Of a stretch of DNA of 64,000 bases, positions 57,210 through 57,995 are shown piece after piece. Position 1 is the first letter of the stretch. Every line of letters starts with the position of its first letter. The notes below the pieces were generated by a model. That model saw nothing but the letters and a program-made list of their open reading frames with translations, searched no databases and had not been told where the DNA came from. The stretch is from a virus. The stretch is from IMG/VR virus record IMGVR_UViG_3300029953_000001; one strand, 5' to 3'. Both the position numbers and the translations under genes were made by a program.

Positions 57210-57995
57210 TTAGAGGAATTCTATGTCGGAGTCGTAGACGTTGGAATCCCTGCCACCCTTTTCCCATTTCACGACGAGGAACCGGGGGTTGCCGCCGTGG
57301 TAGTGGCGATAGGGTTCTTCAATGTCCCGCACGCCGAGGATGGCTCCCTTCATACCGTCCGCCTTGCGTTTAACCTTGGAGCCCAGTTCACCGGGCTTGG
57401 ACATCTTCTTGTCAATCTCGTATACCCGCGATGGGTCGTACACGCATACTTGGTCGCCATCCAGCACCTTACGAATGGTCTTACCCTTGAACCAGACCGC
57501 ATCGAACTGTGACTTGAGATTGTCCGTCAACAGCTTAGTTGCCACTACACGGTCTCGCTTCGCCACGTCAGGGTTGTAGCCCATCTTCACCCACCACTTC
57601 ATCATGGTGTTGGGTGCCGCGAAATTGATGGTCTCCAACCGAGGCACATCAAGAAAGTAAGTACGAAGGCCCTTCGTGGTGCCTCCATTAAACATCTTGG
57701 CGATGGTGGGGGAGGTTGTGAAATATACGCCGTACCCTAGATGGTGGACGGGGGCGGGGACGCCTTGTGCATACGGGGAGGTACCGGTGTAGCCGTTACT
57801 CATACCCTCGCTGCCTTCTTCGCCTTCGGTGAACTTGAATCCTTCAGCATCAATCTTCGCCCAGTTCTCCGCAGTCGTTCCATGGTAGACAGGCCCGAAC
57901 AGCTTGCGGTCTTTTGCTTCCTGCAAGCTGATGGTGTGCGTCTTGGGGTACGCCTTATGAAGGAACTTCGCTTTGAATATCATTTCTTCACCCAC
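57210..57995 (-). CDS. PARP-like (H-Y-E class) ADP-ribosyltransferase candidate (261 aa)
   Basis: FGPVYHGTTAENWAKIDAEGFKF resembles the PARP H-G-S strand (LWHGSR...IL..GF). GYGVYFTTSPTIAKMF resembles the PARP G.GIYFA Tyr motif. Confidence 0.4.
   Translation of the reverse strand: MGEEMIFKAKFLHKAYPKTHTISLQEAKDRKLFGPVYHGTTAENWAKIDAEGFKFTEGEEGSEGMSNGYTGTSPYAQGVPAPVHHLGYGVYFTTSPTIAKMFNGGTTKGLRTYFLDVPRLETINFAAPNTMMKWWVKMGYNPDVAKRDRVVATKLLTDNLKSQFDAVWFKGKTIRKVLDGDQVCVYDPSRVYEIDKKMSKPGELGSKVKRKADGMKGAILGVRDIEEPYRHYHGGNPRFLVVKWEKGGRDSNVYDSDIEFL

Follow-up and report, generated by a model that had tools for sequence, protein, structure and literature searches.

The gene at positions 57210..57995, on the minus strand of a viral DNA stretch of 64,000 nucleotides (nt) (IMG/VR record IMGVR_UViG_3300029953_000001; the whole stretch is called the window below), probably encodes a stand-alone, two-domain ADP-ribosyltransferase (ART), which would use nicotinamide adenine dinucleotide (NAD+) to place (mono-)ADP-ribose on a host macromolecule. 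To this reading, in which the enzyme is related to the ART-PolyVal family and is of the H-Y-D/Q type, we would give a probability of roughly 0.6. The protein is a new, divergent, stand-alone ART-PolyVal-related member with a fused SH3-like domain. It is not a new kind of enzyme or system: the ART-PolyVal type has already been described computationally, which was missed by the original prediction, made from the sequence of the window alone. Indeed, both the ARTs of polyvalent proteins and NAD+-ADP-ribose systems of jumbo phages are known from computational work (PMC5512222, PMC7824862, PMC9503650), and our literature search for experimental work on ART-PolyVal-type enzymes found none.

The open reading frame (ORF) is real and, counted from a GTG at 57995, specifies 261 amino acids (aa). 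It is to be noted that an ATG at 57983-57981 is more likely to be the start than the GTG, which lies 12 nt further upstream, because this ATG forms an ATGA overlap with the TGA of the upstream gene, gives a length matching that of a database protein (P0001) and stands where the relatives start. The product would then have 257 aa (57210..57983), but residue numbers throughout this text are those of the 261-aa form. The H-G-T strand, the GF turn and the G.GVYFT motif that had first drawn attention to this ORF are present as described, VYHGTTAENWAKIDAEGF being residues 36-53 and GYGVYFT residues 87-93. A database search with the ART returned 371 homologs at E<=1e-3, metagenomic without exception and none with an informative name, and in view of this number the motifs are not a chance occurrence. 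No similarity to cultured or annotated phages came out of megablast with 55000-62000 or tblastn with the ART protein against 50,697 phage records, and PDB sequence searches, with either the single ART protein or the family profile as the query, returned only noise.

Structure prediction and fold search divide the protein into an ART catalytic domain and a C-terminal SH3-like barrel (Table 1). The split beta-sheet fold of ARTs was recovered in the former, for which NAD+ binding is predicted; the model has strands at residues 33-37, 90-93, 112-115, 120-123, 166-169, 182-185 and 191-194, with a helical insert at 128-163, and its closest matches are protein-modifying PARPs and toxins. An unrelated fold, the outcome that the original prediction had named as speaking against an ART, was thus not what emerged. 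The barrel is predicted to be a targeting or docking domain.

Which residues would carry the catalysis? In a family alignment of 39 sequences, with identity down to ~45%, H38, Y91, G34, P35, G52, F53, D179, G180 and Q182 are invariant, and G39, T40, D165 and D181 are nearly so. His38 is the predicted NAD+-binding histidine, and H38-G-T is placed at the end of model strand 33-37, as is characteristic of the H-x-[ST] motif on strand 1 of the H-Y-[E/D/Q] clade. Y91 lies within strand 90-93 ('VYFT'), where this clade has its strand-2 Tyr, and in canonical ART-PolyVal domains its aligned partner is the aromatic of 'GFxFT'. As to the third catalytic position, there are two candidates. D165 opens the fifth main model strand (166-169) and pairs with the Asp of 'GYDG', the only one that is invariant in the canonical domains; this placement matches the published definition of ART-PolyVal, a family of the Tox-ART-HYD2 clade characterized by H on strand 1, Y on strand 2 and D on strand 5 (Iyer et al., 2017; PMC5512222). 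D165 is therefore, as far as the alignments go, a candidate counterpart of the D in H-Y-D. The alternative candidate is the D179-G180-D181-Q182 cluster, specific to the present subfamily, which closes a low-confidence loop (pLDDT, the per-residue model confidence, <50 at residues 174-178) directly before strand 182-185 ('QVCVYD'). To the eye, 'QVCVYD' resembles 'NEYIVYD' of PARP1, but the pairwise match alone is not significant: in local alignments with PARP1, motif I stood above shuffled controls (2/2000) and the strand-5 region did not (1012/2000). Equivalence between E988 of PARP1 and Q182 is thus not established, and the counterpart of E988 may be either D165 or D181/Q182 with D179. In any case, conserved acidic or amide residues are found at both places, so that a third strand devoid of catalytic Glu/Asp, which the original prediction had considered fatal, is not what the family shows.

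Concerning the family, assignment of the protein, and of a second small H-G-T ORF in the window, to the H-Y-[E/D/Q] ARTs is supported by structure prediction, fold search and family profiles. That it does not look like the R-S-E enzymes Alt and Mod of phage T4 was rightly noticed at the outset, since His and Tyr fill motifs I and II and the query has no PF03496 match. The relevant Pfam profile is PF18760 ("ADP-ribosyltransferase in polyvalent proteins"), which has a gathering threshold of 31.2 bits. When 39 members of the family were scanned singly with Pfam, 29 matched PF18760 at E<=0.01 (best 2.1e-8) and three matched PARP, and several database homologs already bear a precomputed PF18760 annotation; the query ART itself has no match to this profile at E<=0.01, nor at E<=1. 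The matches of its relatives span profile positions 8-134 of 140, corresponding to query residues 35-195, that is, the whole catalytic core. Five canonical ART-PolyVal domains were also extracted from related loci, aligned and compared with the family, profile to profile, by hhalign; the two are collinear over 130 columns (E=4e-4, probability 34%), with H38 on the canonical His, "YYLDVPRLE" on "VYLRIENPL" and "QVCVYDPSRV" on "xYxVFSPxQI". Comparisons of the family by hhalign with single sequences, namely PARP1 and two canonical ART-PolyVal domains, gave only short motifs at ~1% probability. The subfamily is nevertheless discrete: its hidden Markov model (HMM) gives members at least 183 bits, whereas everything else, even canonical ART-PolyVal proteins from adjacent genes, receives at most 7.5 bits. 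Against PARP (PF00644) the query reaches 14.9 bits (E 0.019) in the motif I-II region only, below the cut-off of 26.7 bits.

The decisive evidence for the link to polyvalent proteins is architecture. Among the viruses of IMG/VR, the family is present at 50 distinct loci, the longest contig measuring 572 kilobases (kb), and it occurs in just one contig among 185,579 prokaryotic species genomes. In many of the viral loci, the full ART-SH3 module is built as one domain into a very large ORF (3659, 3386, 3329, 3305, 2273, 1997, 1566, 1183 and 777 aa, some of these lengths being lower bounds because the ORFs are cut by locus ends), and the closest IMG/VR relatives of the window protein, with 59-63% identity, are among these giants. 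Pfam scans of the giants revealed canonical ART-PolyVal domains (up to 93 bits), the R-S-E type ADPrib_exo_Tox, and PARP-like and Tpt1-like stretches, together with GNAT acetyltransferases, ParB_N, a 2H/LigT (Acb1-like) phosphoesterase, GP88 and NUDIX. A NUDIX domain is on the same polypeptide as the module in 8 of 51 loci, as counted with a small HMM, since a strict regular expression for the NUDIX box under-counted them, and in two architectures it starts 16 residues past the end of the module. Some database homologs (P0017, P0073) are fusions of smaller size, GNAT-ART and ParB_N-ART. Partners of the GNAT and ParB type are those listed for ARTs in polyvalent proteins by Iyer et al. (PMC5512222), and, because the module is embedded in giants and fusions with these partners, the ART in the window can be regarded as a stand-alone copy of a polyvalent-protein module. 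Polyvalent proteins are predicted to be injected into bacteria by phages.

The most elaborate giants are found in L012 (1420-12399), L013 (49-9966), L011, L048, L009 and L010, all on the plus strand, as ORFs of 2,000 to >3,600 aa with up to four or five different ART-type domains. They also bear GNAT, ParB_N, NUDIX and 2H/Acb1-like phosphoesterase domains, and come from huge-phage contigs of up to 467 kb, some of the ORFs ending at locus ends.

Table 1. Features of the window and their coordinates (residues in the 261-aa numbering; counts refer to the 39-sequence alignment)
Feature	Position	Strand	Remarks
ART gene, from GTG	57210..57995	-	
ART catalytic domain	57402..57938	-	residues ~20-198
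SH3-like (Tudor/KOW-like) beta-barrel, C-terminal	57213..57389	-	residues ~203-261
His38 codon, motif I (H-G-T)	57882..57884	-	39/39; aligns to PARP1 H862; codon verified
Tyr91 codon, motif II (G-Y-G-V-Y-F-T)	57723..57725	-	39/39; strand 2; codon verified
Asp165 codon ('KYDAVWF')	57501..57503	-	36/39; from hhalign against five canonical domains and the Iyer 2017 definition; candidate
D179-G180-D181-Q182 cluster	57450..57461	-	D179, G180, Q182 39/39; D181 37/39; candidate
Tail-fibre-like genes	61355-63637		upstream of the 846-aa gene
846-aa Cys-rich protein	58800..61340	-	several CxxC zinc-ribbon clusters; heads the ART gene string; no family assignment
55-aa ORF	58633..58800	-	homolog is the N-terminus of the L017 fusion protein
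218-aa gene upstream of ART	57980..58636	-	coupled to ART by the ATGA overlap
167-aa gene downstream of ART	56690..57193	-	starts 16 nt past the ART stop; 'LDFGGGKY' motif, like S-adenosylmethionine methyltransferases; phrog_14016 2e-9
Permuted transfer-messenger RNA (tmRNA)	56371-56638 (ARAGORN 56280-56680)	-	Rfam RF04321, 85 bits; tag peptide ANSNVALPIAA
Seven-tRNA cluster	46483-52302	-	Thr x3, Gln, Ile x2 and a CTA-anticodon tRNA
CTA-anticodon tRNA	52229-52302	-	amber suppressor; ARAGORN label tRNA-Pyl
A1S_2505-family phage non-structural protein, 140 aa	40078..40500	-	NF049995 6e-42; phrog_2072 7e-48
NMNAT-like + Nudix (NadM-like)	35057..36058	-	NUDIX 5.9e-12; CTP_transf_like 6e-4, just below cut-off
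NadV/NAMPT (nicotinamide phosphoribosyltransferase)	32066..33481	-	PF04095 1.5e-52, PF18127 8.5e-32; outside the ART operon
Stand-alone mini-ART, 117 aa	26738..27091	-	resembles the NAD+ lobe of Tpt1/KptA; head of tail module, ~5 kb from sheath gene
HNH homing endonuclease	4210-5655	-	

In the window, the ART gene belongs to a tight minus-strand string composed of the 846-aa Cys-rich protein, the 55-aa ORF, the 218-aa ORF, the ART and the 167-aa ORF, immediately downstream of which lies the tmRNA gene, and this gene order is kept in L001, a 405-kb relative. The 846-aa protein has conserved, syntenic counterparts of 874 aa in L001 and 889 aa in L017, and may be a virion or ejection protein. The N-terminal half of the 218-aa protein has a 'LIDGNHR' motif, which is ParB/Srx-like on the motif alone, and its C-terminal 104 aa are a domain that L001 encodes on its own, in an ORF preceding the ART. 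Assignment of this protein as a ParB was not adopted, because it has no Pfam match at E<=1 and BLAST gives only E 0.2-0.6 to real ParB_N segments, so that the motif is a lead at most. For the 167-aa protein, homologs match Methyltransf_23 at 0.022 and 1.4e-4, both sub-threshold, the latter being part of a 459-aa protein encoded directly upstream of the ART in L017 (4499-5878, plus strand), which fuses homologs of the 55-aa ORF, the N-terminal half of the 218-aa protein with its LIDGNHR, and the 167-aa ORF. This fusion indicates that the three partners work together, but they are narrowly distributed. Promoter and terminator scans around the operon gave nothing above shuffles, and the PADLOC library of defence systems had no matches among five proteins searched.

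If the whole family is considered, the recurring neighbours of the ART are structural genes. A tail tube gene, whose identity is confirmed by annotated phages, lies 70-141 nt downstream of the ART in 7 distinct loci (14 in all), and a tail sheath gene is located upstream in L005 (1713-4919), L028, L046 and L057, a group in which the ART can come directly after the sheath gene. In loci of the L031 type, the large ORF that precedes the ART could not be annotated as a sheath. A core tail operon is an unusual place for an enzyme gene. The stand-alone ART immediately upstream of the tail tube gene is seen at L022 (6887-7378) and in 13 other loci, all from one myovirus-like clade. Other ART-PolyVal proteins adjoin the ART in L005 and L008. 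In L003, a 486-aa protein (4544-6004, plus strand) with a complete Tpt1 domain (residues 119-281; 3e-43) is encoded upstream of the ART with a 4-nt overlap, and it has no homology to the 218-aa protein of the window. By eye, its C-terminal extension holds further ART-like motifs, 'YWHWT', 'LMVTS' and 'NEFYVSDPSKARV', the last resembling 'NEYIVYD' of PARP1, and if these motifs are real this phage would have three ART-type domains in a row. A related 122-kb phage contig (L006; 10478-10774, minus strand) has, close to its ART gene, one gene for ribosomal protein S21 and another for a protein with a cold-shock domain, which adds to the translation-related genes of these large phages.

How may such an enzyme work? 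His38 on strand 1 and Tyr91 on strand 2 would bind and orient NAD+, and D165 and/or the D-G-D-Q cluster would stabilise the oxocarbenium intermediate after departure of nicotinamide. ADP-ribose would then be passed to a nucleophile on the host macromolecule, and the SH3-like barrel would most likely select this target or dock the enzyme. The ART is expected to be co-transcribed and translationally coupled with its small partner genes. Because the coupled string lies beside tail genes, the ART is probably a late product that may travel in the virion; the clues for packaging are indirect, namely adjacency to tail tube, sheath and fibre genes, and a paper on the pre-ejectosome of cyanophage A4 mentions no ART. 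Like T4 Alt, the enzyme would attack its host when the DNA enters or shortly afterwards, and serve host takeover or counter-defence.

Other interpretations have to be weighed against this one. The target might be a nucleic acid instead, either DNA bases, as for DarT, pierisin and ScARP, or RNA ends or 2'-phosphates in the manner of Tpt1, perhaps in concert with ParB-like and methyltransferase-like neighbours or with RNA-repair enzymes. The Tpt1-domain protein encoded just ahead of the L003 ART points in this direction, as do giants of the L013 type, which join the module with 2H/LigT phosphoesterase and Tpt1-like stretches, the methyltransferase-like gene and the DGNHR-motif protein in the operon of the window, which are fused in L017, and ParB_N fused to the module in P0073 and L012. 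In addition, SH3/Tudor/KOW-like barrels are frequent binders of nucleic acids or of the RNA polymerase and ribosome machinery, and DarT structures are among the ART fold-search matches of the 117-aa mini-ART. However, the top structural matches of the main ART are protein-modifying enzymes, its score against Tpt1/KptA is negligible (11.6 bits against a cut-off of 26 for PF01885, and 13.3 bits against 231) and it has no Tpt1 RNA lobe; moreover, the neighbours stay below threshold as a ParB and as a methyltransferase, and the adjacency to Tpt1 is seen in one lineage only. We thus consider a nucleic-acid target rather unlikely. Much less probable is a more specific version, in which the ART, the DGNHR-motif partner and the methyltransferase-like gene form a split DNA-directed module, with the ART ADP-ribosylating either the phage DNA, which this hypermodification would protect, or the host chromosome, which it would silence, and with NAD+ supplied by the salvage pathway NARP2; if it were true, the module would be a phage-offensive counterpart of the bacterial defence toxin DarT.

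It might also be imagined that the enzyme chiefly hydrolyses NAD+, or that it destroys or alters immune signals derived from NAD+, as an anti-defence device directed at small molecules. Conflict systems do include NADases with an ART fold (Iyer et al., 2022; PMC9503650), the NUDIX domains that accompany the module, sometimes at such a short distance, suggest a soluble ADP-ribose derivative as the product, and the 2H/Acb1-like domain of L013 is of a signal-degrading type. Bulk hydrolysis of NAD+ would nonetheless oppose the phage's own NARP2-like rebuilding of NAD+, and recognition of a macromolecular target accounts better for a conserved SH3-like domain and for the flexible loop that precedes strand 182-185, so that we find this decidedly unlikely. 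The original prediction had linked the ARTs with NAD+ salvage, and it is true that NadV and an NMNAT-like protein with a Nudix domain are encoded in the same genome, that ARTs consume NAD+, and that NARP2 gives an excess of NAD+ even without a defence system (bioRxiv 10.1101/2024.02.11.579819). The co-occurrence is thus real, but the functional link is not supported: 22 kb separate the two gene sets, which belong to different gene strings, none of 59 related loci has a NadV or NMNAT homolog within 6 kb of the ART, and the genes match NARP2, whose role against NAD+-depleting defences has been demonstrated experimentally (same preprint) and is sufficient, while roughly one in three jumbo phages has NadV (PMC9503650). 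That these genes exist to feed the phage ARTs as one functional system is therefore unlikely. Finally, the protein might be a catalytically dead ART fold that serves as a structural or binding module, such as a virion or tail accessory protein. Its position inside tail operons and its scores below the thresholds of curated enzyme families would suit such a role, and inactive ART folds are known, for example in PARP13 and TASOR (PMC7955679). However, the residues of the NAD+ site (H38, G39, T40, Y91 and D179-G-D-Q) are conserved even among distant members, as is typical of active enzymes, and inactive ARTs characteristically lose the His (PMC7955679), which the window ART keeps; a dead enzyme is accordingly the least probable of all.

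The second small H-G-T protein mentioned above, already noticed in the original prediction, also exists; its 117 aa include LYHGT, and H-G-T is invariant in its small family. It has the fold of the NAD+ lobe of Tpt1/KptA, with the H-G-T motif in place. Against Tpt1 (PF01885), it covers only positions 93-166 of ~180 and scores 26 bits, far from the equivalog cut-offs of 231-239, and since it consists of the NAD+ lobe only, it is not a Tpt1 orthologue. Unlike Tpt1/KptA, it lacks the entire N-terminal RNA lobe, which bears most of the Arg-His-Arg-Arg catalytic tetrad, and the second His of the Tpt1 signature H-H-h is replaced ('SYFT'). Homologous domains were found inside multi-domain proteins of 834 and 1686 aa. 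A GIY-YIG homing endonuclease gene (27102-27887, minus strand) stands directly upstream of this mini-ART.

The NadV and NMNAT-Nudix genes are a NARP2-like pair, and their co-occurrence with the ART needs no ART-related explanation. As in NARP2, the Nampt of the window bears PF18127 and PF04095, and the NMNAT-like plus Nudix protein is encoded 1.6 kb away, as in KVP40. Unlike NARP2, the pair is split by an ORF, and the NMNAT half falls below curated cut-offs, the whole protein reaching 45 bits (5.7e-12) against a cut-off of 397 for the bifunctional NMNAT/Nudix of NCBIfam. The ORF wedged between the two (33462-34397, minus strand) encodes a zinc-finger protein of 311 aa with weak matches to DUF4379/DUF723. 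The ORF at 40078..40500 had been proposed as a weak candidate for a cognate hydrolase of the macro or NADAR type, but it turned out to be a full member of the A1S_2505 family, with no sequence match to macro, NADAR, Pfam, PDB or PADLOC entries, and a literature search on the function of A1S_2505 yielded nothing relevant. Its N-terminal G-S-N-x-x-G-x-H-G-x-G-A-A presumably recalls nucleotide-binding loops of the SLOG or macro type, and we take this as a lead only. In L018/L019, from a phage of 237-317 kb, an A1S_2505 homolog with 53% identity (11937-12491, minus strand) is encoded ~1.3 kb from a 1566-aa ART-bearing protein, and this proximity is the only hint of an association between A1S_2505 and ARTs.

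The window comes from a very large phage. Proteins identical to those of the window are encoded on a 432-kb contig, and the window itself contains a tail sheath gene, tail-fibre-like genes, homing endonucleases, seven tRNAs and the tmRNA. Wholesale recoding of TAG was considered in view of the CTA-anticodon tRNA and rejected for the window, where TAG is the stop codon of 9 of 54 long genes. The regions of auxiliary genes appear to be interspersed with genes for mobile endonucleases.

What can be learnt from such a protein? Giant polyvalent proteins are hard to express, and the window offers a compact version, of 257 aa, of a module otherwise buried in proteins of >3,000 aa. With clear candidate catalytic residues and a separable SH3-like domain for targeting, it could be a tractable entry to the targets of these enzymes. 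It also indicates that huge phages can hold the repertoire of polyvalent proteins as separate genes (ART, mini-ART, methyltransferase-like and DGNHR-motif) that are fused elsewhere, with stand-alone copies within tail operons.

When the ART is compared with known systems, it differs from the PARPs, such as PARP1 and PARP4 of the H-Y-E type, in having no PARP helical regulatory domain and in its bacteriophage origin. The position of the PARP Glu may be occupied by Gln182, or its role might be taken by an acid from D165 or D181, and there is no sign of chain elongation. The functional model comes from Alt, ModA and ModB of T4, phage ARTs for which host RNA polymerase is one target protein among others. 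The T4 head contains packaged Alt, the gene of which is found in association with baseplate genes (summarised in PMC5512222, PMC9503650). These enzymes belong to the R-S-E clade, whereas the window ART is of the H-Y-D/Q type and has no detectable sequence relationship with them. Canonical ART-PolyVal domains lack the extra inserts (residues ~41-87), the invariant D-G-D-Q cluster and the fused C-terminal SH3-like barrel of the present subfamily, have F, W or H in the copies examined where it has a strict Tyr, and are parts of giant proteins, in contrast to the stand-alone protein of the window. Nevertheless, it is ART-PolyVal that the window ART resembles most fully: the H-G-T of strand 1, the aromatic F-T of strand 2, 'YLxIxNPL'/'YYLDVPRLE', the helical insert, '[YH]D[GA]' and 'VFxPxxI' follow one another in the same order, both come from phages and share giant proteins with GNAT and ParB partners, and for both modification of a host macromolecule is the predicted function.

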